Origin: Candidatus Zixiibacteriota bacterium
Lineage (GTDB): Bacteria; Zixibacteria; MSB-5A5; UBA10806; 4484-95
Reading direction: 5' to 3'
DNA length: 64,000 nt
Assembly: GCA_037441845.1 (NCBI GenBank)
Contig: JBBIRK010000008.1
Location: 6,952 to 70,951, forward strand
The first letter of the stretch is position 1. Each line of letters opens with the position of its first letter. Of the stretch, positions 4,286-32,721 are shown piece by piece. Below the pieces are notes generated by a model that saw nothing but the letters and a program-made list of their open reading frames with translations, did no database searches and had not been told where the DNA came from. Made by a program: the position numbers and the translations under genes.

Positions 4286-4657
4286 TCAGGACAAGTGCTT
4301 ATTGACTATTTTGGTCATTTCGAACATGCTGACCTGGGATTTGCCGCCGAATACTCTTCTCAGTTTGTCATCGGCGTTGATCATGGTTTTTTGCGTCTTA
4401 TCCTGCAACCCGTTCTTCTTGATATATTCCCAGAGCTTCTTGGTGATCTGTGTTCTGGGCATCGGTTTGCCGCCAACAATCTCAGCCAGGTCTGCGCTGG
4501 GCGTCATCGGCTTCATGAAAGCCGGGTTTGGAGCCCTCTTGATTTTCTTCTTGGGCGCCTTCTTGGCCACTTTTTTCTTGGCCGGTTTCTTAGTCACTTT
4601 TTTCTTGGCTGGTTTTTTCTTGGCGGTTTTTTTTGCCGTTTTCTTTTTCGCCGGCAT
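4286..4657 (-). CDS. SWIB/MDM2-domain protein with lysine-rich histone-H1-like N-terminal tail
   Basis: 123-aa ORF. The N-terminal ~45 aa are AKKK/PAKKK repeats. The C-terminal ~75 aa (LAEIVGGKPMPRTQITKKLWEYIKKNGLQD...INADDKLRRVFG...VSMFEMTKIVNKHL) match the SWIB domain pattern. An SD-like GGAGA lies 6 nt before the ATG. Confidence 0.8.
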   Translation of the reverse strand: MPAKKKTAKKTAKKKPAKKKVTKKPAKKKVAKKAPKKKIKRAPNPAFMKPMTPSADLAEIVGGKPMPRTQITKKLWEYIKKNGLQDKTQKTMINADDKLRRVFGGKSQVSMFEMTKIVNKHLS

Positions 4658-4776
4658 AAGCGTCTCCTGTTTTGGGGTTCAAGGTTAAACAAACCTTACA
4701 TTTATCTACGCGTCAAATCAGCCACATGTCTCATCGCCCATAGCTTCACTTCATGGCTTTGCTGTTGGCGGCAAAA

Positions 4777-4806
4777 ATTATAGGAGTAATCCGGCAGAAT
4801 TTTCAA
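4777..4806 (-). promoter_or_regulatory. sigma70-like promoter for the SWIB gene
   Basis: The minus strand reads TTGAAA (4806-4801), N18, TATAAT (4782-4777), about 120 nt upstream of the ATG at 4657. Confidence 0.4.
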
Positions 4807-5041
4807 ACAAAAATTGCAGGTTCCGAAAAAATATTTTTTGCCGTCAGAGACGAATATCAGCCTTCGGAAAGGGGGTGAACGCTTTTTCTATGCTTAAAAC
4901 CCATGCCGAGTGATTCGGCATACCCCCCTTTGAACGGACGGGAACCGGATTTTATCCGCGCGGCAACCCGATCAGGCTGAGGCCGTCCCCGTCTATAAAC
5001 TGCGAAAATGCGCTTATTACCCTTTGGATGGCCAGCGCACT

Positions 5042-6920: not shown

Positions 6921-9900
6921 ATGAGTGAAGCAAAATCACGGACAAGAGTCGTCTTGACGGCGATGCTGCTGATTCTGGCCTTCTCCGGGGCAATGGCGAT
7001 GAACCGGGAAGCGGTCGATCTGGCCCGACAATCTTTCCGCGCCGAATACCCGCTTGCGGTATTTCATTACGAGGGAGATCAACTGGCACGGATTTACGGG
7101 GCCCCGATCGAATTGGGCGGCTCAAGCCCCCTGGAAAGTGCCGAACTTTTCCGGCAAAGGTATTCGGCGGTCCTCGGATTGACCCCGGACGAACTCGTCC
7201 AGGTGAGCGCTTTCAACGACGATCTGCATACTCAACAGGTCATGTATGACCAGGAAACCGATCAATATAAATTTACCCTGGTCTATTATTCCCAGCACAA
7301 GGGCGGTATCCCGGTTTTCCGGGGCGAGCTGCGCCTGCTTGTCTTGAATCAGCCCGGTTTTCCGATCGTTTCCGCTGTCTGCGCCGTGCGCGATCTCGGC
7401 TCTTTCGCACCGCAGCAGGCAAGCGCATATGACCCATTGACGGTGCAGAGAAACTTCATGCCGCAAATACCACAAATGACCCAATTCTCCGATCCCAGAT
7501 TGGTTATCTGGGCAGGCGTGGAAGACGAGAAGGTGGAGCCGGTCTTAGGCGTCGAGTTCGTGGCCAGTGACGGTAACACTCCGACGATCGAAAGAAAACG
7601 TTATATCATCGATCCGGTTACCCTGTCTGTGCTGTTCGCGGAAAATATCGTAATCGACGTCGATGTGACCGGCCAGGTCAACGGATTGGCCACCGAAGAC
7701 TTCAAGTCGGAACAATGCGGCAATGAGGTTTCCACCGGCCTGCCGCATGCTTATGTCAACATACAGGGCGGCAATTCCGCCTATGCCGATTCCACGGGGG
7801 CTTTCGTCATTCCCAACGGCGGCAGCTCACAGGTGACGGTGATTTCCCAGACCCGCGGCCGCTGGTTCTATACCCAGAATCAAGCCGGCTCGAATTCGCA
7901 ATTGTCGCTGGCGGTCACGCCGCCAGGACCGGTCAATTTTCTGCACAACTCGGCCAATACGGAATACACCCGAGCCGAAGTCAACGGATATTATCACGCC
8001 AATGTGGTGCGGGATTTCACGCTGAAATACAATCCGACGTATCCGACGATTTACAATCAGACCAACTTCCCGGTCTATGTCAACGACAACACCGGTTATT
8101 GCCCGGGCAACGCCTGGTACGACGGCGTTTCGATTACTTTCTGCCGGGCCAGCGGAAGTTACCCCAATACCGCCTTTTCCACGGTGATTCATCACGAATA
8201 CGGCCATCATCTGGTGGCCATGGCCGGTTCCGGTCAGGGCCAATACGGAGAGGGGATGGGGGACGTGATGGGTGTGCTTATCACCGACAATCCCGGTCTG
8301 GCCTACGGTTTCACCGGCAATTGCAACACGCCTTTGCGCAATGCCGATAATACGATTCAATATCCATGCAGCGACGAGATACACTATTGCGGGCAATTGT
8401 TGTCTGGTTGCGTCTGGCACACCCGCAACGCCTTGGCGATCACCAATCCCACGACATACCGGGATATCATCGCCAATCTGGCTATCAACGCCATGCTGCT
8501 GCACACCGGAACGTCGATCACTCCGACTATAACTATCGACTACCTTACGCTCGACGACAACGATGGCAATATCTATAACGGCACCCCTCACTATTCCGAA
8601 ATTTGCACCGGTTTCAATGCCCACAATATGGACTGCCCGGCGCTCAACTTGCTTTCTTTCACTTACCCCAACGGGCGCCCGCCTTTGGTGAACCCCGGGG
8701 GCGGCACGACCATCCGGGTTCAAGTCAGCGGTGTAGGCGGCACGCCTCAGCCTGGGACAGGGAGGCTGTATTATAACGACGGCGGCGGTTGGATCAATGT
8801 GCTGATGAATCAGGTTTCGCCGAACGTATATGACGCCGTTTTTCCCGCTTTCGACTGCGGCGATCAGATTCAGTATTATTTCACGGCCCAAACGACTCAA
8901 GGAGCCACCGTATATGACCCGACTACAGCGCCGGGAACCAATTACACCGCAACCGTGGGAACCGGAATGATAACCCTGTTCGAAGACGATTTCTCGGGCA
9001 GCACGGGCTGGACCGGTTTGGGCGGCTCGGGCGAATGGACAATAGGAGCCGCCACCGGCGGAGCGGGTTCGGACACCCATGGGAATCCCGACCCGGCACA
9101 GGACCACAGCCCGACGACTGACAATCGATTGCTGGGAACAGACTTGACATCGGGAACCGGCGGAGATTACAGCGCCAACCTGTCGACGACCTATTGGGTG
9201 ACTTCACCAATAATAAACTGCGCGACCGCCCAAGGAGTGAATCTGGAATTCTATCAATGGTTGGGCGTAGAACGTAACCTTTACGACCACGCTTACTTGC
9301 AGGTTTACGATGGCGCGACCTGGATAACTATTTTCGAGAATTCATCGACGACAATCGACGAAAGTTCGTGGAGCTATAAAAAATACGACGTTTCGGCCTA
9401 TGCCGACAGCAACGCCAATTTCCGCATAAGATTCGGGATCGGCAGCACCGATGTCGGCTGGCAGTTCTGCGGCTGGAATATCGATGATATCAAGGTCTAT
9501 GGTATAGAATGTGATCTGGTGAACGGCACCATTTCCGGCACGGTGCAGTATCCGCTTGGGGCGCTGGCGGGTGCGATCGTCACCGCTCAAGATACCTCCG
9601 GCGCCGTTTTTGTCGATACCTCGACTGCACCAGGCGGAGCGTATTCGCTTTCGCTTCCCCCCGGCATCTACGATGTCACTTTCAGGCATATCGATTGTCT
9701 GGATACGAGTTTCAACGACATAAATATAAGCGCCGGCGGATTGGTCCCCATAAATGTAGTGATGAGATACAGGCCGGGAGCGGTTAAAGGTTTGGTGGTT
9801 TCCGAATCCGCCAATCCTATAGCCGGGGTTGTCGTTTCCGCTTTGGGGTCGATGAAACAGGACACAACCGGGGCTGACGGCCGCTATCTCCTTGTTGATC

Positions 9901-10319
9901 TCGCCGTTGACGACTATGACATGACGTTCTACCATCCGAGCTACTTCGATACTCTCGTGCCTAATGTCCAAATTACGCCTGGCGATACGACGTTGTTGAA
10001 TATGACCTTAACCTCAAGGTGCGTTTATGTCTTGGGCGATATAAACGGCGACGGCAACGTTATCGGCGGCGATGTTACCTACGGCGTGCGCTTCTTCAAA
10101 GGCTTAGGCTCACAGCCGCCCGACAGCTGTTACCTCGATTCCTCCGGTCAATTTCTCTATGTCGCCGGCGACGTCAACGGTAATTGCGAATTCCGGGGAT
10201 CGGATATCACGAGGTTGGTGGCTTACTTCAAGAGCTTGGCCGATATTGTCTTCTGCCCGGCTTTGCCGCCGCCGCTCATCAGGCCTGCAATCATGGAAGG
10301 CGCGCGGAAGATCGATTGA
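6921..10319 (+). CDS. secreted multidomain gluzincin metalloprotease (M36/M4-like catalytic core + MAM-like beta-sandwich + carboxypeptidase-regulatory-like repeats + dockerin-like C-terminal module)
   Basis: 1132-aa ORF with a signal peptide (VVLTAMLLILAFSGAMA). VIHHEYGHHLV is followed 19 aa later by GEGMGDVMG, the HExxH...E gluzincin pattern resembling the fungalysin GEGWSD. Other elements: FEDDFSGSTGWTGLGGSGEW...WNIDDIKVYG, GTISGTV...YDVTF-type repeats, and the C-terminal GDINGDG...GDVNGNC module. Confidence 0.8.
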   Translation: MSEAKSRTRVVLTAMLLILAFSGAMAMNREAVDLARQSFRAEYPLAVFHYEGDQLARIYGAPIELGGSSPLESAELFRQRYSAVLGLTPDELVQVSAFNDDLHTQQVMYDQETDQYKFTLVYYSQHKGGIPVFRGELRLLVLNQPGFPIVSAVCAVRDLGSFAPQQASAYDPLTVQRNFMPQIPQMTQFSDPRLVIWAGVEDEKVEPVLGVEFVASDGNTPTIERKRYIIDPVTLSVLFAENIVIDVDVTGQVNGLATEDFKSEQCGNEVSTGLPHAYVNIQGGNSAYADSTGAFVIPNGGSSQVTVISQTRGRWFYTQNQAGSNSQLSLAVTPPGPVNFLHNSANTEYTRAEVNGYYHANVVRDFTLKYNPTYPTIYNQTNFPVYVNDNTGYCPGNAWYDGVSITFCRASGSYPNTAFSTVIHHEYGHHLVAMAGSGQGQYGEGMGDVMGVLITDNPGLAYGFTGNCNTPLRNADNTIQYPCSDEIHYCGQLLSGCVWHTRNALAITNPTTYRDIIANLAINAMLLHTGTSITPTITIDYLTLDDNDGNIYNGTPHYSEICTGFNAHNMDCPALNLLSFTYPNGRPPLVNPGGGTTIRVQVSGVGGTPQPGTGRLYYNDGGGWINVLMNQVSPNVYDAVFPAFDCGDQIQYYFTAQTTQGATVYDPTTAPGTNYTATVGTGMITLFEDDFSGSTGWTGLGGSGEWTIGAATGGAGSDTHGNPDPAQDHSPTTDNRLLGTDLTSGTGGDYSANLSTTYWVTSPIINCATAQGVNLEFYQWLGVERNLYDHAYLQVYDGATWITIFENSSTTIDESSWSYKKYDVSAYADSNANFRIRFGIGSTDVGWQFCGWNIDDIKVYGIECDLVNGTISGTVQYPLGALAGAIVTAQDTSGAVFVDTSTAPGGAYSLSLPPGIYDVTFRHIDCLDTSFNDINISAGGLVPINVVMRYRPGAVKGLVVSESANPIAGVVVSALGSMKQDTTGADGRYLLVDLAVDDYDMTFYHPSYFDTLVPNVQITPGDTTLLNMTLTSRCVYVLGDINGDGNVIGGDVTYGVRFFKGLGSQPPDSCYLDSSGQFLYVAGDVNGNCEFRGSDITRLVAYFKSLADIVFCPALPPPLIRPAIMEGARKID
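10020..10316 (+). other. Cys-containing dockerin-like C-terminal module, copy 1
   Basis: CVYVLGDINGDGNVIGGDVTYGVRFFKGLGSQPPDSCYLDSSGQFLYVAGDVNGNCEFRGSDITRLVAYFKSLADIVFCPALPPP...; it contains two DxNGDG/DVNGNC Ca-loop-like repeats. Confidence 0.75.
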
Positions 10320-10345
10320 AAAGTCGCCATCATAAATTTTTTATG

Positions 10346-10377
10346 GGCCGGTCAGGAATTCCGAGACCGGCCTTTTT
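10346..10377 (+). terminator. rho-independent terminator after the protease gene
   Basis: 8-bp stem GGCCGGTC (10346-10353) / GACCGGCC (10365-10372), followed by TTTTT (10373-10377). Confidence 0.75.
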
Positions 10378-10432
10378 ACCTTCGAGACATGGGTGGGCTC
10401 GGCACAATATTTTTTCAGAAAAAAGATAATAA

Positions 10433-10461
10433 TTGACAAAATAATCAAGGGCGGATATATT
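10433..10461 (+). promoter_or_regulatory. near-consensus sigma70 promoter upstream of the 1474-aa gene
   Basis: TTGACA (10433-10438), exactly 17 nt, TATATT (10456-10461). This implies a ~260-nt leader before the ATG at 10729. Confidence 0.5.
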
Positions 10462-10728
10462 TATTCAGATAGTTTAACCCTTGCGCCGCTACCACTTCCC
10501 GGCGGCGAACCGGAACGTTTGACGATGCGGTTGTTATTGTTTAGAAACAATATATTTCCAAAGTAAAGAGCTGTTGGCTTAAAATTCTGAAGGGGAAAGG
10601 AACAATCAAGAAAAAATCTATCGCGTTTCTCGACCAATCAACCAAGTAACTTATTAAAACGGAAATCAGGGAGCAAAGGGGGACTGTTACTGACATACTT
10701 CAATCAATCAATTAATTCGGAGGATTGA

Positions 10729-13700
10729 ATGAGAAAAATATTACTGCTGACGTTGGCCGTGATATTTGTCTCGGGTATCTGTACCGCCCTGGCAAATCAA
10801 GTTGCGCCCAACGCCGTTAGCGTTTCGAATGTCAATCCGATCGACAACCGGAATGACTCGAAATCAGCGCCGCCTACCATTCCGCAGCACCCAACCGACA
10901 ACCTCGCCCTGACGACATTCATCAATGAGGGTTTCGAGGGGACTTTCCCGCCGACCGGCTGGACCCGGATTATTACGAATTCATCCTACACCTGGCAACA
11001 ATCTTCCGGCTACGCCCACTCGGGATCTTACGGCGCCAATGTTCCCTGGAATTACCTACAGGATGAATGGCTGGTTTCGCCGACGTTCAGTTTGGTTGGC
11101 GCCGGCATAGATGCCAGGGTGAAATTCTGGTGGATGGCAAGCTACGACTGGATGGTAAGCCCGTATCAGAACGGTGACTACGAGCTATGGATTTCCACCG
11201 ACGGTGGGGCCACCTGGCCCACCATGCTCTGGGATGAAAACAGCGAGGGCGTTTTCAGCAGCTGGACATGGTATCAGGAGGAAATCAGCCTGGCCGCTTA
11301 TATCGGTCAGAGCAACGTAATGCTCGCGTTCCGCTATGTCGCCGATGATGCCGCCGATATCGGCCTTGACGACGTAGTCGTCACGGACGACCCGGATGTT
11401 CCCTGCGTGGTCACTTGCCCGCCTGGAGCGACACTGGAAGCCGAAGCTTGCGGCGACAGTATCAATGACGGTTGCAACCGGGTTCCCTTCCAATTCCAAT
11501 CGGTAACCTGCCCGGATACCGTTTGCGGCACCGCCTGGGCCAGCACCTCTTTGAGAGACACCGATTGGTATCTGTTGACACTTGCTCAGTCAGAGTCGCT
11601 CTACTATTACGGCACGGCTGAATTCCCGTTGGCGTTGATTCTTATCAATGCCGGCACCGGAAACTGCACGACATATTCGATCATAACCTCGGCGACCGGC
11701 AATCCCTGCGATACGGTATCTATAATCCAGTACCTTGCCGCGGGGACCTACTATCTCTGGGCGGGCCCCTCGGTTTGGGTCAACATGCCTTGCGATGGTT
11801 CTGGCGACTACACAAACGATTATACGCTCTGGTTCTATTGCCGCGGCCACGTTGTCGGACCGCCCAACGACGATTGCGTTAGCGTTACCCCTGTGCCCTT
11901 GGCTCCGGGATCGCCTTTGACCTTTAGCGGCGATAACACCAACTCCACCAATGATTGCAGCTTCCTGAGCTATCCTCAGGTCTGGCATGCGTTCACGACC
12001 ACCGAATGTTTAGACATAACGGTCGACTACTGCTCCACTACCCCGGCTTTCGGCAATGCTTATATAATTTTGGTTGACAGCTGCCCCTGCGCCAGCTCGA
12101 TCACCTATACGAGCTATGATTTCACGACCTGTGGTGACGGCAATATCACGATAACATTCCTTGGTGTGCCACCAGGAACTTATTACTACCCGGTTCTCAC
12201 CGACCCGGCCAACAATGCCGTTGGACCTTACACGATCCACGTTTCAGGTGTCGCTTGTCCTCCGCCACCGCCGAACGACGACTGCGCCAACGCGCAACCG
12301 GTCGGTTTCGTTTTTCAATTGCCCTGGTCGACGACCAGCGCAACCTACGACGGCGGCGGAACCTGCATGACCTCTAAAAACATCTGGTACCTATTCACTT
12401 CGCCGGTAACAGATTCGGTTCATGTGGCTCTCTGCGGTTCGTCTTTCGACACCAAACTCGCAGTTTATGACGGTTCGAGCTGCTCCCCGCTTCCCACCGT
12501 GTTACTTTGCAACGATGATGCCTGCAACACCACCCTGCAATCAGAGGGATATTTCTACGCCACCCAAAACAGCCAGTATCTGATTGAAGTCGGTGGATTT
12601 TCCTCGTATTCCGGAAACGGCGTTCTCACCATAGAAGCGGGCGATCCGATATTCGGCGTAACCCCGACCTCATTGACCGATACGGCGGCTGTCGGAAGCT
12701 CTGTCACCGATACGCTGACGGTTACCAACACCGGCTCGGCGGCTCTCAATTTCACCGTCATAGGCGCTCAGAACCCGTTCCTGCGCCTCGACATCGATCG
12801 GCAATTCGAATCGATGAATATCCCTGAGGGTGCCTCGTTCGCTTCGGAAAACAAAGAAGCCAAGCATCCATTCCTGAATAACCCCACGGTCAAAACCGAG
12901 GAAATAGATGAGGCTTCTCTGGCGATGAAGGAAGCCTTGGCGGAGCAAGCGAAGTTGGAAGCCCAGCTTGCGCTCAAGGGCACCAGCGAGACATTTGCAG
13001 TATCCAAACCTGATCCTGCGGTCATACTCCAGGGCGGTGATGATATCGCGAATGCCACGGTTATCACCTCATTACCGTACACCGATGCGGGAACAACCAC
13101 AGGCTATACGAATGATTATTCCGGCAGCTGCGGCTATGATGCCGGGGCTCCCGACGTCGTTTATTCCTACACACCTGCTGGAAACCAAAGCATCAGTATC
13201 TCGCTTTGCGGCGGCACAACCTGGGATACGAGGTTATATGTTTACGAAAACAACTCCTCGACCGAGATTGCCTGCAACGATGACTATTGCGATCTGCAGT
13301 CCCAGCTCGATGCAGTATCGCTGACCGGCGGCAACACTTACTACATCGTAATCGACGGCTACAACATTTCCAATGGATCCTACACGATCGACGTGACCCA
13401 GTACGTTCCGCCGACCTGCACCCCCGATCTGACGGTCAATCTGCCGGCTGCTCTGCCTTACAACGATATCGACCGCACCAACTGCGGCCTGGGCAACGAT
13501 TTCAGCAACACTTGCTTGGGTTCGTATGACGGCGGCGAGGATATCATTTACGAGCTGAACGTGACTTCAACCATTTGCGTGGACGTCACCTTGACTCCTG
13601 ATTCGACCTGGACCGGTATCGTTCTCGATGACGAATGCCCGCCGAATCCTACGTCTTGTATCGCAGCTTCCGTCAGCTCTGGAGCTGTTCCTCACGGGTT

Positions 13701-15153
13701 TACGGGCATCACTCTGGCACCCGGGTTGTATTACATCATGGTTGATACCTGGCCGACACCTAACTGCGCCACTTTCGATCTGAGCATTATCGCCTGCCCG
13801 CCGACTCCGCCGAACGACGATTGCTCCAACGCCACCGCAATCGCCGGTCCATATCCGGCCAATGTGAGCGGTACGACCTTGGGCGCTACTCTCGATTGCC
13901 CGGGCATCCTCGACTGGAACGGCGTCTGGTATACGTTTAACGCTCCCTACACATCCAACACGGTTTACATCGACTACTGCCCGACGACCACTTCGTTGTC
14001 ATCGGTCAGCGCCGTGTTCTTCACCGATTGCACTTGCGATACCACCACCTGGCAGGTCTACGATGCCGGCTCGTTCGTGACTTGCCCGAACACCACGACC
14101 AACGCCCAGATATTCTGGTATAACGTTCCCGGACCGGCTACCTATTACCTGCCGATAACTACGGGAACGATCGGCGCCGATTTCGATTTCACGATCGACG
14201 TCACCGAATACATTCCCTGCGAGGTCAATTGCCCGCCGGGCGCTACGCCTGAGCCTGAATCTTGCAGCCTTGATCTCAATGGCGGATGCAACGCCACGCC
14301 GCCGGTGTTTTCCGATATCGCTTGCGGCGACACTATCTGCGGCACCGCCTGGGCGAATACCTCGCTGCGGGATACCGATTGGTATATATTGAGGCTGACC
14401 AATCCCACGCTCATCACCTACACCGGAGTGGCGGAATTTCCGTTCCTGATGTTCGTAATCAACCCCAACGACACGACTACCTGCGGCGACGAAACCATCT
14501 TGGCGTCGGCCACCGCCGATCCTTGCTCCACCGCCACGATTTCGGCTTCTCTCGCGGCTGGTGTCTGGTATCTCTGGGCCGGTCCATCAAGCTGGTTCAA
14601 TATGCCTTGCGATGGGTCGGGTGATTACACCAACGATTACGTCATCTCCCTGTCCTGTCAACCCCTGTGGTTGAACGTCGGCGTAAGCAGCGGAAGCGTG
14701 CCCCCGTTCTCGAGCATACCTGTGCCGGTTACGCTTGATGCCACTTATCTCACCGCCGGGACCTACACCGGTAACGTGATATTCAACACCAACGACCCGT
14801 TGACTCCCACCGCCAGCGTGCCGGTGACGTTCGTGGTCACAGCCGGCGGCGCCTGCGACTATGTCCTGGGTGATATCAACGGCGACGGCAACCGTATCGG
14901 CGGCGACGTCACGTTCGGTGTGCGTTACTTCAAGGGAATCGGCTCGGCTCCGCCCGACAGCTGTTACATGGATTCGACCGGCACGTATCTGTATGTGGCC
15001 GGCGATGTCAACGGCAACTGCGAATTCAGAGGATCTGATATCACCAGATTGGTGGCCTTCTTCAAGGGGAATGCAGCTCTGGCATACTGCCACTTCTTCC
15101 CGCCGCCGATCATCAGACCGCTGAGTCCGATCGAGGTTGCCCCGATCCGGTAA
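10729..15153 (+). CDS. giant secreted Cys-rich repeat protein (N-terminal MAM/'choice-of-anchor'-like sandwich, repeated PPNDDC-initiated modules, dockerin-like C-terminal module)
   Basis: 1474-aa ORF. GGAGG lies 7 nt before the ATG and there is a signal peptide (ILLLTLAVIFVSGICTALA). FINEGFEGTFPPTGW opens the N-terminal domain. Module openers are GPPNDDCVSV, PPPPNDDCANAQ and PPTPPNDDCSNAT. There is a large internal duplication and a C-terminal GDINGDG...GDVNGNC module. Confidence 0.8.
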   Translation: MRKILLLTLAVIFVSGICTALANQVAPNAVSVSNVNPIDNRNDSKSAPPTIPQHPTDNLALTTFINEGFEGTFPPTGWTRIITNSSYTWQQSSGYAHSGSYGANVPWNYLQDEWLVSPTFSLVGAGIDARVKFWWMASYDWMVSPYQNGDYELWISTDGGATWPTMLWDENSEGVFSSWTWYQEEISLAAYIGQSNVMLAFRYVADDAADIGLDDVVVTDDPDVPCVVTCPPGATLEAEACGDSINDGCNRVPFQFQSVTCPDTVCGTAWASTSLRDTDWYLLTLAQSESLYYYGTAEFPLALILINAGTGNCTTYSIITSATGNPCDTVSIIQYLAAGTYYLWAGPSVWVNMPCDGSGDYTNDYTLWFYCRGHVVGPPNDDCVSVTPVPLAPGSPLTFSGDNTNSTNDCSFLSYPQVWHAFTTTECLDITVDYCSTTPAFGNAYIILVDSCPCASSITYTSYDFTTCGDGNITITFLGVPPGTYYYPVLTDPANNAVGPYTIHVSGVACPPPPPNDDCANAQPVGFVFQLPWSTTSATYDGGGTCMTSKNIWYLFTSPVTDSVHVALCGSSFDTKLAVYDGSSCSPLPTVLLCNDDACNTTLQSEGYFYATQNSQYLIEVGGFSSYSGNGVLTIEAGDPIFGVTPTSLTDTAAVGSSVTDTLTVTNTGSAALNFTVIGAQNPFLRLDIDRQFESMNIPEGASFASENKEAKHPFLNNPTVKTEEIDEASLAMKEALAEQAKLEAQLALKGTSETFAVSKPDPAVILQGGDDIANATVITSLPYTDAGTTTGYTNDYSGSCGYDAGAPDVVYSYTPAGNQSISISLCGGTTWDTRLYVYENNSSTEIACNDDYCDLQSQLDAVSLTGGNTYYIVIDGYNISNGSYTIDVTQYVPPTCTPDLTVNLPAALPYNDIDRTNCGLGNDFSNTCLGSYDGGEDIIYELNVTSTICVDVTLTPDSTWTGIVLDDECPPNPTSCIAASVSSGAVPHGFTGITLAPGLYYIMVDTWPTPNCATFDLSIIACPPTPPNDDCSNATAIAGPYPANVSGTTLGATLDCPGILDWNGVWYTFNAPYTSNTVYIDYCPTTTSLSSVSAVFFTDCTCDTTTWQVYDAGSFVTCPNTTTNAQIFWYNVPGPATYYLPITTGTIGADFDFTIDVTEYIPCEVNCPPGATPEPESCSLDLNGGCNATPPVFSDIACGDTICGTAWANTSLRDTDWYILRLTNPTLITYTGVAEFPFLMFVINPNDTTTCGDETILASATADPCSTATISASLAAGVWYLWAGPSSWFNMPCDGSGDYTNDYVISLSCQPLWLNVGVSSGSVPPFSSIPVPVTLDATYLTAGTYTGNVIFNTNDPLTPTASVPVTFVVTAGGACDYVLGDINGDGNRIGGDVTFGVRYFKGIGSAPPDSCYMDSTGTYLYVAGDVNGNCEFRGSDITRLVAFFKGNAALAYCHFFPPPIIRPLSPIEVAPIR
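11404..11841 (+). repeat. internal duplication, copy A (within the 10729..15153 CDS)
   Basis: CVVTCPPGATLEAEACGD...CPDTVCGTAWASTSLRDTDWYLLTL...AAGTYYLWAGPSVWVNMPCDGSGDYTNDYTLWFYC aligns end to end with copy B. Confidence 0.8.
14218..14658 (+). repeat. internal duplication, copy B (within the 10729..15153 CDS)
   Basis: CEVNCPPGATPEPESCSL...CGDTICGTAWANTSLRDTDWYILRL...AAGVWYLWAGPSSWFNMPCDGSGDYTNDYVISLSC. DNA similarity to copy A is also visible (e.g. tgcggcaccgcctggg, tgccttgcgatgg). Confidence 0.8.
14854..15150 (+). other. Cys-containing dockerin-like C-terminal module, copy 2
   Basis: CDYVLGDINGDGNRIGGDVTFGVRYFKGIGSAPPDSCYMDSTGTYLYVAGDVNGNCEFRGSDITRLVAFFKGNAALAYCHFFPPP...; it has the same 99-aa length as copy 1. 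Confidence 0.75.
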
Positions 15154-15202
15154 CCGCTATTCAAAGTCCGCCGAGTTAATGTCGGCCGGACGATGACTCG
15201 AA

Positions 15203-15237
15203 GGGTATCCGCTATGCGCGGGTACCCTTTTTTTTTT
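15203..15237 (+). terminator. rho-independent terminator after the 1474-aa gene
   Basis: Imperfect stem GGGTATCCGC / GCGGGTACCC (one mismatch), followed by a T10 run (15228-15237). Confidence 0.7.
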
Positions 15238-15350
15238 GTGCCGATACCGCCAATGTCACCCGGCCAAGCCCATTTTCCAGTCGGTTACCGAACCCCGAAC
15301 AAATTCGCGATTATGGATAATTCGGTGTCTTAATTTGCCGATAACGACAA

Positions 15351-15794
15351 ATGGAATTCTACTCGAAGATGGATTCGGACATGGCCAAGAAACGGAAAAC
15401 AAAAGGCGCTGTTTCAGAAGGTGCGATCGAAAAAAACCGCATCCTGATTTTGGATAACGAGCCGGAAATGGATAATCCTCTAATTAATTATTTATGGAAT
15501 TCCGGATACGATACAATAGCGGTCGCCGGCATACGAAATATAAAAACAACCACGAACAAGTTCAAACCGGACCTGGTGATAGTCAATCTCGATCCTGGTC
15601 GCCCCGACTATTTGAAACACAATCTTGCCATAGCGCGGAATCTGGCGGCGGCCGACATCCCCGCAATTCACCTCGTATGTGGTTGCATAAAGTCAGAATT
15701 GGAAACACTGAATAAGCCGCCATGCCGATGTGTTGAAAAGCCGATCAGCGGCAAGAAACTTTTACGCTTGATCAAGCAGACAATCGGAAAATAA
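15351..15794 (+). CDS. stand-alone receiver-like (REC) domain protein with degenerate phospho-acceptor pocket
   Basis: 147-aa ORF. ILILDNEPEM ... KPDLVIVNLDPGRP ... CVEKPISGKKLLRLIKQ follows the CheY-like layout. Asn sits where the acidic pair and the acceptor Asp are expected (DD->DN; DLVIVN rather than DLxxxD). Confidence 0.6.
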   Translation: MEFYSKMDSDMAKKRKTKGAVSEGAIEKNRILILDNEPEMDNPLINYLWNSGYDTIAVAGIRNIKTTTNKFKPDLVIVNLDPGRPDYLKHNLAIARNLAAADIPAIHLVCGCIKSELETLNKPPCRCVEKPISGKKLLRLIKQTIGK

Positions 15795-15912
15795 CTTCGA
15801 ATCTCGCAGACTATCGTCAGTCACGCATTCAGCGTTCGTCAATGGGTTATAAAAGCGAAAGCGTTTTCGAAGTTCGGCGGGGGCAATCAGCGCCGCAACG
15901 AAAACTCAACCC

Positions 15913-17748
15913 CTACCGCGGCGGAAAATAGGGGCAGAATTCGAGCAGAGCCGAGCCTTTGAAATAGTTCACCAGCCGGGTGATATCCGAGCCGCGGAAC
16001 TCGCAATTGCCGTTGACATCACCGGCGATATAAATGTAGGCGCCGATCGAATCGAAATAACAACTATCGGGAGGCGGCGCACCGATAGCCTTGAAAAAGC
16101 GCACGCCATAGGTGGCATCCGAGCCGATAAGCACGCCGTCGCCATTGATATCGCCGAGAACATAGTCGCAAGGAGGCGCCCCGGCCGTCCCCCGCGGGCT
16201 GTTCGAAAGAGCCGACAGGTTCAAATTATCGTCGGTCGATTTCAGAGCAAAATAGTATGACTGTCCCTGAACTAGGCCGCTGACGATCAGCGTCTCCGCG
16301 GCACCGCCGTTTTTAGGGTAGGGAAGATTACTGATTCTTGTCGCGGCGTTCCATTCGTTTTCCGTATCGATCGGACCGAATGATTCCGCTCTGTAACGGA
16401 TATCATAAAGGGCTGCCTGTCCCGACCCGCCGTCATCGCCGGGCGCCGTCCAGCGCAACGTGATTTGATTTCCGAGCGGGCCGCCTCCGGCAAAGAGGTT
16501 GGTTACCTGTCCCGGCAACATGTGATCGGAAGTATCCTCATCGAGCGGATAATAGCGCGGCAAACCGAGAATCACCCTTTCATCCGGCCCGACGTTCACC
16601 CGACCGCTGGCGCTTACATGAAACAGACGCTGGCCGTTTGTCTTGATTACTATATCGCCGACGGCATAGCCGTTATAGCTGCGATAGTCCCCAGGGGAAC
16701 CGGAGCCTTCCTCCGTTTGCAGTACGATCGCCGCCGGCGCCGTCACGCAAACCGTGGCCAACGCCCGCAACACGTTATCGAGAATGTCGATTCGGGGAAA
16801 ATCCCAGCCGCTGGCCTGCCCGCCGCCTACGTTTATACAGGCGATTCGGGGCGTCAATAAATTCATGTAATCTTTATTGGTAGAGCTTTCGCTACCATGG
16901 TGATTGACATGCAAAACTTCCACCCCTAAAGCCCCCAGCAGATTGGCTCCCGATGGCGACCGCAACGATTGGGCAAGCGGCGTTTCGACATTTGCGTAAT
17001 CGGTGGCCGTATTTCTGCCGGTGCACCACTGATCGTCCTCGCCGCCTCCGAGGTCGGAGGCCCACAGGTACTCGAATTCGCCGTATCTGATAAGTAAAGC
17101 GATGCTCTTGTCGTTTTCCTCGGAAACCGAAACGCTTCCGCCGCCCAAGATATTCCCGTGAACGGCGACACAGGTTGCCGTGGCTCCATCACCGAGCTGT
17201 ATTGTCGTGCCGAGCGTCATCGGGACAGCCGGGCCGGCGGTCGTGGTGGCGGCGGCGTTGAAAAAAGCGGTCACGGTCGAGTTCGATTTGCTGCTGCCGT
17301 TGTAATAAACGCGGTTGAGCACATTGTATCCGCCGTAGATAACCTCGTCGAGTCCACCTATATGATCACCATCGAGATGGCCGGCAACCATATAGTTGAG
17401 GTCGTCGCTCGGTAAAAGGCCGATGCTGTTGAAATACGGCACGATATCGCCGTTGCCGTCGCCGTCGTTTCCGCCGTCCATCATCATGGTGGTGCCGTTC
17501 GGGCCGATAATCAAAGTGGCACCGGCGCACTGGACGTTGATATAGTGAATTTCGAGCAACCCCGAGGGGGTAAAGGCAGCCGCGCCGAGCGAAAACGAAA
17601 GAATCAATATCGCCGACAATAACCTCACGGCATAACACGGCCTTTTATTCCGGGCATATAAACCCAACGAGGTCCTCCTTCGAATCCATGAAGGTAACCC
17701 GTATAATATAAGCGAAGATCCGGAATTGTGAATTAAAAAAGTGATCAT
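15913..17748 (-). CDS. secreted ComEC/Rec2-type metallo-beta-lactamase-fold hydrolase fused to an Fn3-like domain and the dockerin-like C-terminal module
   Basis: 611-aa ORF. MVAGHLDGDHIGG (ComEC-type HxDxDH) and VNHHGSESS are present. The Fn3-like region reads LRWTAPGDDGGSGQAALYDIRYR. The C-terminus is CDYVLGDINGDG...GDVNGNCEFRGSDITRLVNYFKG...FCPYFPPR. The signal peptide starts around aa 41, and GTG at 17628 is an alternative start. Confidence 0.8.
   Translation of the reverse strand: MITFLIHNSGSSLILYGLPSWIRRRTSLGLYARNKRPCYAVRLLSAILILSFSLGAAAFTPSGLLEIHYINVQCAGATLIIGPNGTTMMMDGGNDGDGNGDIVPYFNSIGLLPSDDLNYMVAGHLDGDHIGGLDEVIYGGYNVLNRVYYNGSSKSNSTVTAFFNAAATTTAGPAVPMTLGTTIQLGDGATATCVAVHGNILGGGSVSVSEENDKSIALLIRYGEFEYLWASDLGGGEDDQWCTGRNTATDYANVETPLAQSLRSPSGANLLGALGVEVLHVNHHGSESSTNKDYMNLLTPRIACINVGGGQASGWDFPRIDILDNVLRALATVCVTAPAAIVLQTEEGSGSPGDYRSYNGYAVGDIVIKTNGQRLFHVSASGRVNVGPDERVILGLPRYYPLDEDTSDHMLPGQVTNLFAGGGPLGNQITLRWTAPGDDGGSGQAALYDIRYRAESFGPIDTENEWNAATRISNLPYPKNGGAAETLIVSGLVQGQSYYFALKSTDDNLNLSALSNSPRGTAGAPPCDYVLGDINGDGVLIGSDATYGVRFFKAIGAPPPDSCYFDSIGAYIYIAGDVNGNCEFRGSDITRLVNYFKGSALLEFCPYFPPR
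15916..16170 (-). other. Cys-containing dockerin-like C-terminal module, copy 3
   Basis: CDYVLGDINGDGVLIGSDATYGVRFFKAIGAPPPDSCYFDSIGAYIYIAGDVNGNCEFRGSDITRLVNYFKGSALLEFCPYFPPR. Confidence 0.75.
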
Positions 17749-17781
17749 TGTGGTCAGTGGCGTCCATTGATTTCTGAGTAA

Positions 17782-18624
17782 TCATTCCGCGCTGAACGGG
17801 CCGCAGGTGAATTTGTCGATTATCATTTCCAATTTACCGGCGGTGCTTTTCAAGTTGAAATAATGCCGAAAAGTATTTCCGAAACCCGCGCCCTTGATCC
17901 TCGGTTGGTCGGGATCGAATTCCCACGGATGCAGATAGACGATCACCGGACGCCCCTCGGCGTTGACCTTGCGAAAGTTGCGTCTTATCAAGAATCCCGG
18001 GTAAAATCTCAAGTAACCGCCGCCGCCTGCCGGAATCGTGCGACCCATGAAATCGACAACCGTCATCGGATACTCGCGGATGCTGGTATTTCGCAGAACG
18101 ATATCGAAAGGAGCACGGGGAGCGTCAGCCGCCTTTCCATATCGGAAATGTTTCATGGGGAAAAGCGACGAATCATATATGAACCCGAGATTAGCCAAGA
18201 TTTCGAATTTAGCAAGATCGTCGGCATTCAAAGAAAAACTGGGCGCTCGATAGCCCACCACCTTTTCGCCGGTTATATCCTCGAGCGTTTTTTTGGTGAT
18301 TTCGACATCTTTCTTGAATTCGTCGTCGGTCATGCGGTAGAGAAGGCGGTGATCCCAACCGTGGCAGGCGATCTCGTGACCGGCCTCCGCGACCTTCTTG
18401 ACCAACCCCCGATTCGATTCCGCTACGCATCCCAGAAAAAAGAAAGTGGCTTTTACGTTCTTGCACTCCAGAATTTCAAGGATCACCTCAGTTCCTTTAT
18501 CGACTCGGGTGGGGAAATTACCCCAATCCTCGCGGCGCACCGCTCTTTCGAGACCGCTTACCTGATAATATTCCTCTATATCGAAACTGAGGATGTTAAC
18601 CACGGGCGGATTCCCCCTTCGCAA
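17782..18624 (-). CDS. polysaccharide deacetylase family protein (DUF3473 / PEP-CTERM-locus-type subfamily by recollection)
   Basis: 280-aa ORF. ILSFDIEEYYQV ... ATFFFLGCVAE ... GHEIACHGWDH ... YLHPWEFDPDQP fits the NodB-fold deacetylase subfamily found in exopolysaccharide loci. Confidence 0.85.
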   Translation of the reverse strand: MRRGNPPVVNILSFDIEEYYQVSGLERAVRREDWGNFPTRVDKGTEVILEILECKNVKATFFFLGCVAESNRGLVKKVAEAGHEIACHGWDHRLLYRMTDDEFKKDVEITKKTLEDITGEKVVGYRAPSFSLNADDLAKFEILANLGFIYDSSLFPMKHFRYGKAADAPRAPFDIVLRNTSIREYPMTVVDFMGRTIPAGGGGYLRFYPGFLIRRNFRKVNAEGRPVIVYLHPWEFDPDQPRIKGAGFGNTFRHYFNLKSTAGKLEMIIDKFTCGPFSAE

Positions 18625-18631
18625 GTGAAGA

Positions 18632-19603
18632 TCAGCCGCTAAAAGCGGTCGGTTCGAGACGAAGATATTCGGTGGTCCTTTTTTTCTGATCGAGATCTTT
18701 CCAAACTCGCCTCACCTGCTCTTCTGTCAGATTCAAAACCCTGGCCGCCTCAGTCGCGGGAACGCCGTTATCTTTGGCATACCAAAGCAGATCCATCATC
18801 TTGAATTTAAGCCCGTAGAAAAATTCTTCTTGAGTTTGCTCGTCAGGGTAGGTATCGGTGGTAGGCGTTCTTTTCAGGATTTCGTCGGGAACCCCGAGAT
18901 AGGCGCCGAGCTGAAACACCTGGGTCTTGAATAAGTGGGCTATCGGCTTAGTATCGGCACCGCCGTCGCCGTATTTGACGAAAAATCCTTGCTCGTGCTC
19001 GTTTTTGTTGCCGGTTCCGATTACCGAGTAATTCAGCCGCTCGGCATGATAATACAGCATCAACATTCGGATCCGCTGTTTCATATTGGAGGCCGCCACT
19101 ATTTGCAAATACTCTTTAAGCGGCAATCTTTTGGTGATAGGCTGACCTCCGGGCGGCGTGGCCGTTAGGCGGAACAGGTTCAATCTGTCTGATTCGAGGA
19201 TATTCGTAGGAAGTACGATTTTCGCTTTCCAGCCCGGACCGTATTCGGGAAATACGGCCTTGAACGCGGCGTCCCGCCACTTGTAACAGCCGGCTCCCTC
19301 GAGCGCCCGCGTCACGTCCTCCACGACATATTCATAGCCGAATTTTTCCGCGAGCAGCTTGCCCAGGCGGGTGGAATCGGCCGAGGAATCGCGGTCCGGC
19401 AGCAACACCCCCAGCATTTTTTTCGGCCCGAACGCCCGAGCGCAGAGGGCTGCCACCACCGCCGAATCGATCCCCCCCGAGGTGCCGACCACCGCGCCGG
19501 CCCGTCTGAATTTATTATAAACTTGATCTTGTAAAAAATTCACGAGCTCTTCGGCCGTCTTTTCGCAATCCAATTCGAGCTCATCAAGGGAAAAGGCCAT
19601 CAT
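18632..19603 (-). CDS. NAD+ synthetase-family ATP pyrophosphatase (N-type PP-loop enzyme)
   Basis: 323-aa ORF with the PP-loop GTSGGIDSAVVAAL, plus GTGNKNEHEQGFFVKYGDGGAD and PIAHLFKTQV, as in NadE. It overlaps the ligase stop by 4 nt (ATGA), which suggests translational coupling. Confidence 0.8.
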   Translation of the reverse strand: MMAFSLDELELDCEKTAEELVNFLQDQVYNKFRRAGAVVGTSGGIDSAVVAALCARAFGPKKMLGVLLPDRDSSADSTRLGKLLAEKFGYEYVVEDVTRALEGAGCYKWRDAAFKAVFPEYGPGWKAKIVLPTNILESDRLNLFRLTATPPGGQPITKRLPLKEYLQIVAASNMKQRIRMLMLYYHAERLNYSVIGTGNKNEHEQGFFVKYGDGGADTKPIAHLFKTQVFQLGAYLGVPDEILKRTPTTDTYPDEQTQEEFFYGLKFKMMDLLWYAKDNGVPATEAARVLNLTEEQVRRVWKDLDQKKRTTEYLRLEPTAFSG

Positions 19604-21138
19604 GCCCTCGCTTTCGTCTTGTATTTTTCCACCAATTCATACTTTTTCGTCTTGCCCGATTCGGTTTTCGGCAGCGCGTCAACCTGGTATATTTCACGCG
19701 GGATTTTGAACGGGGCAAGGTTCGCTCTAAGGTGTTTGCGAAGCTCTTTCTGATCGATTTCGCCCTTGGCCACAATATAAGCCACGATCGCCTCCCCCAA
19801 AATCTCATCCGGTACCCCGACCACCGCCGATTCTATAACTCCGGCGAACTCGGCGATTACCTCTTCAATCTCCTTCGGTGATATCCGGTGCGCCCCGCTT
19901 TTTATCATCTCCGAACTGCGGCTTACGATATAAAGATATCCCTCTTCATCGGCTTTCGCCAGGTCTCCCGTATGCAAACCATCGGGTTTCAACACACGGG
20001 CGGTATCCTCGGGATTGTTCCAGTAACCCATCATTATATTGTCGCCTTTGGCGACTATCTCTCCGACTTTCCCGGGCGGGCAGATTCGTCCGTCTTCATC
20101 TTTGATAGTCAGCTCCACCCCGGGTATCGCTTTCCCGATAGAGCCGATTTTTTCGAGCAGTTTTTCGGGTTCAAGATAAGACAACCGCGCCGAGGCTTCG
20201 GTTTGCCCATACATTATGTATATTTTTATATGCGGCAGCGCCTCCATGATTTTCTGGGTCAGCGCCGGCGTCATCGGTCCGCCGGCCTGAGTGATATAGC
20301 GCAAATGCTCGAATCGATAATTGCGGATATTCGATTTATGCATCAGGATAGCGAAAGTCGACGGCACGCCCGAGAAACCGGTGACCCTTTCTTGAGCCAT
20401 TATTTCAAGGATCACGTTGGGATAAGCAAACCGCCCGTCTATAACCAAGCTTCCGCCGACAGCCATATGAGTTAAAAGCAACGAATTGCCGTAGGAATAA
20501 TAAAACGGCAAAATCGCCATCACCCGGTCTTCGGCGTTCAAATCGAGGTAACGGATTATCGAACTCGTATTCGCGTGAAGATTCCTGTGGCTTAACGTAA
20601 CCCCCTTAGGTTTACCGGTGGTGCCCGAAGTGTAGATAATCTGCGCCGGGTCGGTTTCCTGGCGGCTTGTTTGCGGCCTGGCGGGATCACCGCTAAGTTG
20701 GATATCGACAAGACTCAGCGCCCTGATATCTTTCGGAAGATGTTCGGCGCGGTCCTCGGCGACGACAAAACGCAGCGAGGGAATATCATGATAGACTTCT
20801 TTAATCACGGGCACGGCGTTTTTGCCTATAATCAAGCCGGTCACCGAGCAATCGCTCAGGATATTGCGGAAATCGCGTGCCGTTCCCTGCGAATTAAGCC
20901 CTACCACTATTCCGCCGGCCTTAAGGATTGCGAAATAAGCGATAATATAGTTTATTGAAGACTCGATTAAAATCCCCACCCGATCGCCGGGATGCAGATT
21001 CAGTTTCAGCAGCTGGTTGGCAAGCCGATTGGCCGCCGCTTCCAAACCCAGATAATTTATCCGTCCACCCAAATGGATAGCGGCGTCTTTATAGGGAAAT
21101 CTGGCGGCGTTTTCCTCCAAGTAATGATGAATCAGCAT
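19600..21138 (-). CDS. adenylate-forming acyl/aminoacyl ligase (AMP-dependent synthetase/ligase superfamily)
   Basis: 512-aa ORF. It carries the AMP-binding signature IIYTSGTTGKPKGVTLSH, plus YGQTEA, GDLAKADEEGYLYIVSRSSEMIKSG and the C-terminal PKTESGKTKK. Confidence 0.9.
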   Translation of the reverse strand: MLIHHYLEENAARFPYKDAAIHLGGRINYLGLEAAANRLANQLLKLNLHPGDRVGILIESSINYIIAYFAILKAGGIVVGLNSQGTARDFRNILSDCSVTGLIIGKNAVPVIKEVYHDIPSLRFVVAEDRAEHLPKDIRALSLVDIQLSGDPARPQTSRQETDPAQIIYTSGTTGKPKGVTLSHRNLHANTSSIIRYLDLNAEDRVMAILPFYYSYGNSLLLTHMAVGGSLVIDGRFAYPNVILEIMAQERVTGFSGVPSTFAILMHKSNIRNYRFEHLRYITQAGGPMTPALTQKIMEALPHIKIYIMYGQTEASARLSYLEPEKLLEKIGSIGKAIPGVELTIKDEDGRICPPGKVGEIVAKGDNIMMGYWNNPEDTARVLKPDGLHTGDLAKADEEGYLYIVSRSSEMIKSGAHRISPKEIEEVIAEFAGVIESAVVGVPDEILGEAIVAYIVAKGEIDQKELRKHLRANLAPFKIPREIYQVDALPKTESGKTKKYELVEKYKTKARA

Positions 21139-32019: not shown

Positions 32020-32721
32020 GTGGTATTAACGCTTGGGATCGGCCAGGCAATCGCAGAAAATAACCGGACAACGTCGTTACGGACAATTCCCTCGGGCGCG
32101 GAAACGCCCGGACGCATAAACATCGGATATGCCCTCGGCGATTCAGGGGAATTGCCCAGCCCCGCCTTAACAGGCGAAGTAATTCTTGCCTGGACGGCAT
32201 CGGGCGACGACAGCCTTACAGGAACCGCCTACGGTTACGATGTAAGATTTCGCAGCGACAGCCTCGGACCGATTCTGACGCTCGCCAATTTCATTATGTC
32301 GCGCCAGGTGCTCGGCGAACCGCCGCCGTCTCCGCCGGGAACCCGCGATTCCATGATCGTCACCGGACTGGTTCCGGGCGCCGGGTATTATTTCTGCATG
32401 GTGGTTTTCGATGAAAATTATAACGTCTCCCGCCTATCGAGCTCACCACACGTCGTCGCCGGAGCCTCGGATTTTTTGCCTGGCGACGCGAACGGCGACG
32501 GTTTTATTCGGGGCAGCGACGTCTTATACTTGTTAGCCTATTTTCGGGACATTAATCCTCCGCCGCAGCCGTATTATGCGGGCGATGCCAACGGCGATTG
32601 CATCGTTGGGCCGGCTGATTTAACCTATTTGACCAACTACCTTAAAGGTTTCGGGGCGGCGCCGGTGAGCGGCGAATGCCCACCTCTTCTGCTGGGAAAG
32701 ATTGGCGAATCTTCCCCTTGA
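32020..32721 (+). CDS. secreted Fn3-like protein ending in a divergent dockerin-like module
   Basis: 233-aa ORF from a GTG start. LAWTASGDDSLTGTAYGYDVRFR is Fn3-like, as in 15913..17748. The C-terminus reads GDANGDGFIRGSDVLYLLAYF...GDANGDCIVGPADLTYLTNYLKG...ECPP. The in-frame stretch upstream back to the stop at 31978 (RSWIALFVVLTLGIGQAIA) would complete a signal peptide. Confidence 0.7.
   Translation: MVLTLGIGQAIAENNRTTSLRTIPSGAETPGRINIGYALGDSGELPSPALTGEVILAWTASGDDSLTGTAYGYDVRFRSDSLGPILTLANFIMSRQVLGEPPPSPPGTRDSMIVTGLVPGAGYYFCMVVFDENYNVSRLSSSPHVVAGASDFLPGDANGDGFIRGSDVLYLLAYFRDINPPPQPYYAGDANGDCIVGPADLTYLTNYLKGFGAAPVSGECPPLLLGKIGESSP
32473..32718 (+). other. dockerin-like C-terminal module, divergent copy 4
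   Basis: FLPGDANGDGFIRGSDVLYLLAYFRDINPPPQPYYAGDANGDCIVGPADLTYLTNYLKGFGAAPVSGECPPLLL. It keeps the two Ca-loop repeats, a Cys in loop 2, and a terminal Cys-Pro-Pro. Confidence 0.6.

Follow-up and report, generated by a model that had tools for sequence, protein, structure and literature searches.

Three large exported proteins encoded in a 64,000-nucleotide stretch of a Candidatus Zixiibacteriota genome (contig JBBIRK010000008.1, positions 6,952 to 70,951; hereafter the window) end in a shared cysteine-bearing module which, judged by its sequence and predicted structure, is a divergent type-I-like dockerin. The module fits best in a dockerin subfamily of its own, new and specific to this lineage, which is missed by the standard dockerin model and is hugely expanded in the Zixibacteria, an uncultured group that is widespread both in sediments and in anaerobic digesters. 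The best overall explanation, which we regard as moderately probable, is that this disulfide-braced dockerin docks exported cargo on a receptor, for which a conserved domain of about 165 residues, here called X, is the best current candidate. The original prediction, made from the window sequence alone, had described the module as a candidate sorting or anchoring tag with dockerin-like calcium loops. The module marks a large set of exported proteins, with more than 1000 sequence clusters in total and dozens per genome, and recognition of the braced dockerin thus provides a handle for listing the surface and secreted proteome of the lineage.

The shared module and its carriers

Carrier 1 (6921..10319, + strand) encodes an exported protein of 1132 residues with a signal-peptide-like N-terminus, an HExxH motif and two CarboxypepD_reg domains (Pfam, E = 1e-22). 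Its module occupies the end of the protein (10020..10316, +; 99 residues); the first calcium loop lies at 10038-10073, the cysteine that opens the hairpin insert at 10128 and the second calcium loop at 10170-10205, and a variable tail follows the PPP motif. Carrier 2 (10729..15153, +) is a cysteine-rich repeat protein of 1474 residues with a signal peptide and weak Pfam matches only (GBD_T9SS_assoc and BACON_2). Its C-terminal module (14854..15150, +; 99 residues) is the copy used for structure prediction and has loop 1 at 14872-14907, the second cysteine and the hairpin at 14962-14991, loop 2 at 15004-15039 and the fourth cysteine at 15088-15090. Carrier 3 (15913..17748, - strand; 611 residues) combines a metallo-beta-lactamase (MBL)-fold, ComEC-like hydrolase and an Fn3-like domain with a terminal module of 85 residues (15916..16170, -; loop 1 at 16152-16117 and loop 2 at 16020-15985). 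The MBL, ComEC and fn3 matches of this protein are all weak, and the cluster of its relatives is named ComEC or beta-lactamase superfamily in public sources. Its listed start looks wrong, lying about 40 residues upstream of a signal-peptide-like segment; translation probably begins further downstream than this ATG, just ahead of the hydrophobic segment. A profile of relatives matches the three copies at E = 1e-48, 1e-51 and 1e-46, respectively.

The 85-residue cores of the three copies share 72-76% protein identity and 71-76% DNA identity in pairwise comparison, as expected from the original description of one C-terminal module on three large secreted proteins, and 24-27 codons per pair differ only synonymously. 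Owing to this DNA divergence and the synonymous-only codons, the copies are old and under purifying selection, rather than products of a recent duplication or an assembly artefact. Outside the module, carriers 1-3 show no significant mutual BLASTP similarity (E > 3), so that the cargos are indeed unrelated; an exact look-up of carriers 1 and 2 matched no record. The PPP tail of the consensus proposed earlier holds overall, with the exception of module 3, which ends in PPR.

A fourth, divergent copy had been predicted at the end of the open reading frame (ORF) at 32020..32721. This copy (about 32470..32718, +) is real, but it is an ordinary, canonical type I dockerin that passes Pfam Dockerin_1 (34.1 bits). 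Its carrier (carrier 4, also ORF4; 32020..32721, +) is an Fn3-like protein of 233 residues, and carriers 3 and 4 have in common the Fn3-like domain that immediately precedes the module (42% identity over 100 residues). In the alignment the fourth copy lacks the insert of about 11 residues and the first cysteine pair and keeps the second pair (NGDC ... GEC); it scores 34 bits against the family profile. The listed start of carrier 4 falls inside the apparent end of a signal peptide (VVLTLGIGQAIA), which therefore looks truncated.

Predicted fold and family assignment

Pfam Dockerin_1 (PF00404) has a gathering threshold of 22.9 bits. Module copies 1, 2 and 3 score 19.8, 13.7 and 19.3 bits, respectively, all below this threshold, whereas the fourth copy lies above it; among the carriers of the family, Dockerin_1 is matched at E <= 1e-4 in only 4 of 67. 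When the module profile was searched against solved structures, dockerins were the sole sequence matches, and these were weak (best E = 0.007). An AlphaFold2 (AF2) model of module copy 2, calculated from an alignment of 82 sequences, has a mean predicted local distance difference test (pLDDT) score of 90.6 and a predicted template-modelling (pTM) score of 0.76; with an alignment of 13 sequences the pLDDT was 45 and the model was uninformative. The model contains a helix (residues 19-30), a beta-hairpin (40-42/47-49) and a second helix (63-73), and its confidence is high through the PPP motif and drops in the tail. In a Foldseek search of the PDB, the top 28 matches were all dockerins, with probabilities of 0.69-1.0 and target-normalized template-modelling (TM) scores of 0.35-0.81. 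Thus, the predicted structure has a dockerin fold, and the earlier description of the module as dockerin-like is borne out by the fold as well as by the calcium loops.

Known sorting and anchoring families do not account for the module. Copies 1-3 gave no match at E <= 10 to NCBIfam, including its sorting-domain models (TIGR04183 and TIGR04131 among them), and none to the Pfam type IX secretion system (T9SS) sorting domain (PF18962); a protein of relatives that ends in a T9SS sorting domain, used as a positive control, scored 39.3 bits. The model for GC-type dockerin domain-anchored proteins (NF041540; cutoff 29 bits) was also unmatched by the three modules, and ORF4 reached only 13.4 bits.

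Calcium loops, hairpin insert and cysteines

Each half of the module contains one 12-residue EF-hand-type loop, DINGDGNRIGGD and DVNGNCEFRGSD, followed by a helix that ends in (R/A)(Y/F)FKG. The duplicated loops were anticipated from the window sequence; both are present in all copies, and over 170 family modules the calcium-ligand residues at positions 1, 3, 5 and 12 are kept in 97-100% in both loops. The residues at the helix surface are also very strongly conserved in the family. The three noncanonical features noted at the outset, namely the insert, the four cysteines and the Cys-x3-Pro-rich end, are real as well. The insert between the two repeats is about 10-11 residues long and forms a beta-hairpin in the model; the loop-to-loop spacing is 32 residues in 114 of the 170 modules and 21 in ORF4. 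The last cysteine and the proline-rich stretch belong to the confidently modelled part.

Each of the four cysteines is kept in 85-95% of the 170 modules, and their loss is pairwise. Eight modules lack both C1 and C2, C3 and C4 are jointly absent or shifted in four, and ORF4 of the window retains the C3-C4 pair alone. This pairwise loss suggests two disulfides, C1-C2 and C3-C4. A zinc site formed by all four cysteines was considered and is disfavored by the pairwise loss and by the single pair kept in ORF4.

The tail beyond the last cysteine varies from 6 to 83 residues and is poorly conserved. The tails (HFFPPPIIRPLSPIEVAPIR and similar) were read directly; no PEP or LPXTG motif, no hydrophobic or membrane helix and no cleavage motif was found in them.

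Relatives contain further subtypes of the module. One has a short linker and shifted cysteines, is usually N-terminal or internal and is followed by X, and another, with six cysteines (CxC ... CPxCPP), occurs at C-termini. Several subtypes may share one protein (P0060, P0106, P0113, P0115, P0117, P0118 and P0138 are examples of the subtypes).

Distribution in the Zixibacteria

An exhaustive profile search of 1.84 billion representative proteins gave 1089 clusters at E <= 1e-10, a number that rises to 1704 at E <= 1e-3 and falls to 139 at E <= 1e-30. A motif scan of one genome per species found 73 loci, all of them in metagenome-assembled genomes (MAGs) that bear the label Zixibacteria, 'uncultured Ignavibacteria' (binchicken bins) or 'uncultured bacterium', so that the predicted lineage specificity is upheld for every reference-genome locus found, each of which sits in a Zixibacteria-type MAG. 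Three MAGs have at least 27, 24 and 12 module loci; the motif scan is narrow, and its counts per MAG are minimum values. Window positions 12631-18120 have a syntenic counterpart, with about 81% nucleotide identity, in CAZHVC01, the closest MAG. In public sources the carriers are named 'hypothetical protein' or after their cargo only, since the module goes unrecognized by the standard dockerin model. A word-indexed homologue search with the module returned only 16 short fragments, and a search of a literature library found no paper that joins Zixibacteria and dockerin.

Cargo and position of the module

The cargo comprises 43 Pfam families across 67 carriers, of which the commonest are CarboxypepD_reg (21 carriers), LVIVD (7), beta-helix (7), FG-GAP (6) and BACON (5); subtilase is also present. 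By a simple heuristic, 80 of the 103 full-length (Met-started) carriers have a signal-peptide-like N-terminus, and most of the others look like fragments. The original proposal of a tag on unrelated secreted cargo is therefore supported by the wider family.

The kind of tag can be approached from its position. The great majority of carriers have the module at the C-terminus, which would suit a C-terminal sorting signal that directs its protein to a dedicated secretion or attachment machinery and is then cleaved or covalently processed, as are the T9SS C-terminal domain (CTD) and PEP-CTERM. Such a signal would also be in keeping with dozens of carriers per genome within one lineage, with cargo that overlaps typical T9SS cargo (CarboxypepD_reg, LVIVD, FG-GAP and BACON) and with the XrtA-system polysaccharide deacetylase gene that adjoins carrier 3. 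Nevertheless, a single high-scoring module is N-terminal to the cargo domain in P0116 and internal in P0098, and among 158 proteins there are 16 that contain 2-4 modules each, often with one directly behind the signal peptide. The NCBIfam sorting-domain models are all unmatched, the tail is variable, is modelled with low confidence and has neither PEP nor LPXTG nor a hydrophobic helix, and the predicted fold is that of a dockerin. In addition, related MAGs use ordinary T9SS type A CTDs on other proteins, sometimes beside carriers. The N-terminal, internal and multi-copy modules, the motif-less variable tail and the separate T9SS domains together point to a binding module, not to a cleaved C-terminal sorting signal, and we consider the sorting signal improbable. 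Thus, the module is probably an attachment tag used for anchoring or docking; this half of the original 'sorting or anchoring' proposal is the better reading, and the sorting half is not supported, given the N-terminal, internal and 2-4-copy modules, the lack of a tail motif and the T9SS domains on other proteins.

Signals of the PEP-CTERM/exosortase and LPXTG/sortase systems were sought in the modules by the NCBIfam scan and by reading of the tails, and none was found. A PEP-CTERM/exosortase tag, which had been considered on account of the XrtA-system deacetylase beside carrier 3, was rejected in the absence of a PEP motif, a helix or a model match.

The X domain as a candidate receptor

X is a conserved domain of about 165 residues without a Pfam, NCBIfam or PDB sequence match, which was encountered in proteins with several modules and typically starts with a PDSIIIGNLD-like segment. 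Examples in relatives are residues 134-296 of P0148, 280-442 and 532-694 of P0060, the gene at 3122-4009 of L074, from the closest relative of the window, and those in L058, L061 and L072, among others. Of the 121 carriers that are 250 residues or longer, 37 contain X, which abuts the next module without a linker 27 times; it is also found downstream of dockerins. Small proteins with the order signal peptide-module-X-module also occur (P0148, P0150, P0153 and P0156).

X is not confined to proteins with a module. The closest (genus-level) relative of the window has two tandem genes for proteins of about 290 residues that comprise nothing but X, flanked by a signal peptide and a T9SS type A CTD (L074 1966-2724 and 3122-4009); the CTD scores 39.3 bits against TIGR04183 (cutoff 23), and Pfam Por_Secre_tail and FlgD_ig match as well. 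This architecture was found in four metagenome contigs, at 34-90% identity. Some clades thus have a fusion of X with the module, and in the clade of the window X resides on a separate, probably surface-anchored protein, a Rosetta-stone pattern that hints at an interaction between the two.

Directly downstream of the tandem genes and beside a carrier, L074 also encodes an outer-membrane beta-barrel-like protein of 392 residues (4535-5713, +), with a weak match to the PopA porin family (57 bits; cutoff 150).

Profile comparison hints at a weak likeness of X to cohesins, the receptors of dockerins. In hhalign, X aligned with seven solved cohesins over 122-133 collinear columns, and the scores of 23.5-32.7 (P = 1e-4 to 4e-3) exceed those of the controls, which were at most 19.2 for column shuffles, 14.3 for a reversed profile and 11-14 for unrelated domains; an alignment with three cohesins had 42% probability over 17 columns. 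X is thus possibly cohesin-like to a weak degree, on evidence that is weak but consistent. A word-indexed homologue search returned nothing for X and, with a cohesin as query, only close clostridial cohesins.

Several observations weigh against the reading of the module as a dockerin that docks on X. Copies 1-3 stay below the Dockerin_1 threshold, as given above, and the disulfide pairing is deduced from counts of joint loss only. Pfam Cohesin (PF00963) gave partial, sub-threshold matches in 4 of 11 X sequences, scored 20.9 bits for P0060 and matched none of 35 further X sequences, three PDB sequence-profile searches with X returned nothing relevant, and the hhalign probabilities for X and cohesins are just 9-56%. 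Two motif scans located the X-CTD protein in a single reference MAG and did not show it in the two most carrier-rich MAGs, where the scans need exact peptide words and the MAGs are incomplete. Six-frame scans of the window found neither an X (cohesin-like) domain nor a T9SS sorting-domain motif, and an X that adjoins a dockerin on its upstream side might instead serve as an accessory 'X module', as in the X-module-dockerin (X-Doc) dyads of types II and III. The model also leaves unaccounted for how cargo without a T9SS domain crosses the outer membrane. As had been remarked from the window alone, no cohesin, sortase, exosortase or T9SS component is recognizable there: the six-frame scans for X and the T9SS motif were empty, and the window ORFs scanned with family libraries, which were not all of its ORFs, contained no sortase, exosortase or T9SS component. 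Four sampled carrier contexts likewise contained no cohesin.

The possible role of X as an accessory leads to a different assignment of the receptor. The module would then be a true dockerin that is received by a conventional cohesin, or by some other protein, encoded elsewhere in the genome, and X would merely support the dockerin. The linker-free contact of X and dockerin in 27 proteins is the known geometry of X-Doc dyads (PMC12484212), the three carriers of the window lack X, and the 35 X sequences without a Pfam Cohesin match fit this role too. On the other hand, X also occurs without a dockerin, flanked only by a signal peptide and a T9SS sorting domain, which is hard to reconcile with a mere accessory; it is larger, at about 165 residues, than known X modules; and it aligns end to end with cohesins, above every control. 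We regard a conventional receptor with an accessory X as rather unlikely.

Alternatively, there may be no protein receptor at all. The module would be an orphan 'non-cellulosomal dockerin', stabilized by calcium and disulfides, that binds an envelope glycan, exopolysaccharide or mineral, or that merely stabilizes exported proteins. Dockerin-like modules without a recognizable cohesin are reportedly widespread in bacteria and archaea, no canonical cohesin was found in any context examined, and an exopolysaccharide-type gene cluster adjoins carrier 3, all of which would agree with a nonprotein ligand. However, the conserved helix surface, with (R/A)(Y/F)FKG closing both repeats, is a better fit to a specific protein interface, and the recurrent fusion and co-distribution with X suggest a dedicated partner; we judge an orphan module to be unlikely.

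Proposed docking mechanism

The docking of exported cargo by a braced dockerin, with X as the candidate receptor, might proceed as follows. In this lineage the linker between the repeats would have been turned into a beta-hairpin of about ten residues; the C1-C2 disulfide would tie the N-terminal strand to this hairpin, and the C3-C4 disulfide would tie calcium loop 2 to the segment behind the last helix. Many kinds of Sec-exported proteins would carry the module, mostly at the C-terminus, and it would fold in the oxidizing, calcium-containing extracytoplasmic space. There it would act as a plug by which the cargo is docked noncovalently onto a receptor protein, as cellulosomal dockerins dock on cohesins, and not as a cleaved secretion signal. 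An X that has a signal peptide ahead of it and a T9SS type A sorting domain behind it, as in the closest relative of the window, would be displayed on the cell surface. We infer the docking function by analogy with dockerins; X as the receptor and the route of the cargo across the outer membrane are likewise presumptive.

A bolder and rather doubtful version is that the Zixibacteria possess a self-contained, non-cellulolytic surface-assembly system, in which stapled dockerins plug dozens of exported proteins into X, a receptor domain that goes unrecognized as a cohesin by standard models, with X displayed by the T9SS in some clades and fused to dockerins, as an adaptor or in self-polymerizing proteins, in others. 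If true, this would represent a new receptor-plug pair and a new way to build the cell surface of a diderm. A T9SS-anchored X is a receptor hypothesis that would extend cohesin-dockerin-type assembly in diderm bacteria belonging to the FCB (Fibrobacteres-Chlorobi-Bacteroidetes) superphylum beyond cellulose degradation, and the pair could possibly serve protein engineering as a robust, disulfide-stabilized docking pair.

Comparison with known systems

The module shares the main features of type I dockerins (PF00404; Acetivibrio thermocellus, PDB entries 4fl4, 4dh2 and 2ccl), namely two tandem loop-helix repeats, 12-residue EF-hand-like calcium loops (D1, N3, D/N5 and D12), the predicted fold and the usual C-terminal place on secreted, otherwise unrelated proteins. 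A similar helix closes both repeats, which would permit a dual binding mode. Nevertheless, there are clear differences. The first is structural: a beta-hairpin of about 11 residues takes the place of the short linker/helix 2, and the module has four conserved cysteines (two putative disulfides), a Cys-x3-Pro-rich end and a sub-threshold Pfam score. The second lies in the setting, with a diderm Zixibacteria host and non-cellulolytic cargo.

The closest precedent at the system level is Ca. Stygibacter (Cloacimonadota), for which dockerin-bearing enzymes and a cohesin scaffoldin with a T9SS C-terminal domain have been proposed in silico (PMC8542988). Both are diderms of the FCB superphylum with signal-peptide-bearing proteins, peptidases among the enzymes, that end in dockerins, and in both a receptor anchored by a T9SS CTD is proposed on in silico evidence only (PMC8542988). 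The Stygibacter receptor, however, has Pfam-recognizable tandem cohesins on a scaffoldin of 3755 residues (PMC8542988), whereas the candidate here is a single orphan X on proteins of about 290 residues, and the dockerin here is a cysteine-braced variant missed by standard models.

In the X-Doc dyads of types II and III (CipA XDocII, and the R. flavefaciens XDoc that binds ScaE), an extra domain also lies upstream of the dockerin without a linker, as it does in 27 relatives here. In contrast, the modules of the three window carriers lack X and are preceded by CarboxypepD_reg, BACON-like and Fn3-like domains, and X, about 165 residues long, can also follow a dockerin or stand by itself with a T9SS sorting domain. 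The T9SS type A CTD (TIGR04183/PF18962) resembles the module in that it is found throughout a lineage at the C-terminus of cargo of very similar kinds in FCB bacteria, and it is present in the same Zixibacteria genomes, but it has a beta-sandwich fold and another sequence, its models are unmatched by the window modules, and the cysteine-bearing dockerin also occurs N-terminally and in multiple copies. The GC-type dockerin domain-anchored proteins (NF041540) are alike in concept, being a lineage-specific dockerin-type C-terminal anchor that is curated as a family of its own, although their model is unmatched by the three modules.

Gene neighbourhood

An exopolysaccharide-type gene cluster directly adjoins carrier 3 (17782-18624, 25140-25994, 19600-21138 and 22899-25022, all on the - strand). 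It encodes an XrtA-system polysaccharide deacetylase (TIGR03006, 316 bits; cutoff 276) with a second, weaker paralogue, an acyl-CoA ligase that resembles the exosortase-A-associated type below the cutoff, a sugar 4,6-dehydratase/epimerase-family enzyme with all NCBIfam matches below the cutoff and a protein that resembles UDP-GlcNAc 2-epimerase (188 bits with the WecB model; cutoff 210). No exosortase gene was seen among the window ORFs scanned.

Between carriers 2 and 3 lies an ORF of 147 residues (15351-15794, +) that has no family match and looks by eye like a receiver (CheY-like) domain; the matching intergenic stretch is not conserved at the DNA level in the syntenic relative L001.

In a 162-kb metagenome contig (L084), a type II secretion/type IV pilus-like cluster (12061-20207; N_methyl pseudopilin, T2SSE ATPase, PilM and PilO) begins about 2 kb downstream of a carrier gene, which is perhaps relevant to outer-membrane crossing and perhaps a coincidence.

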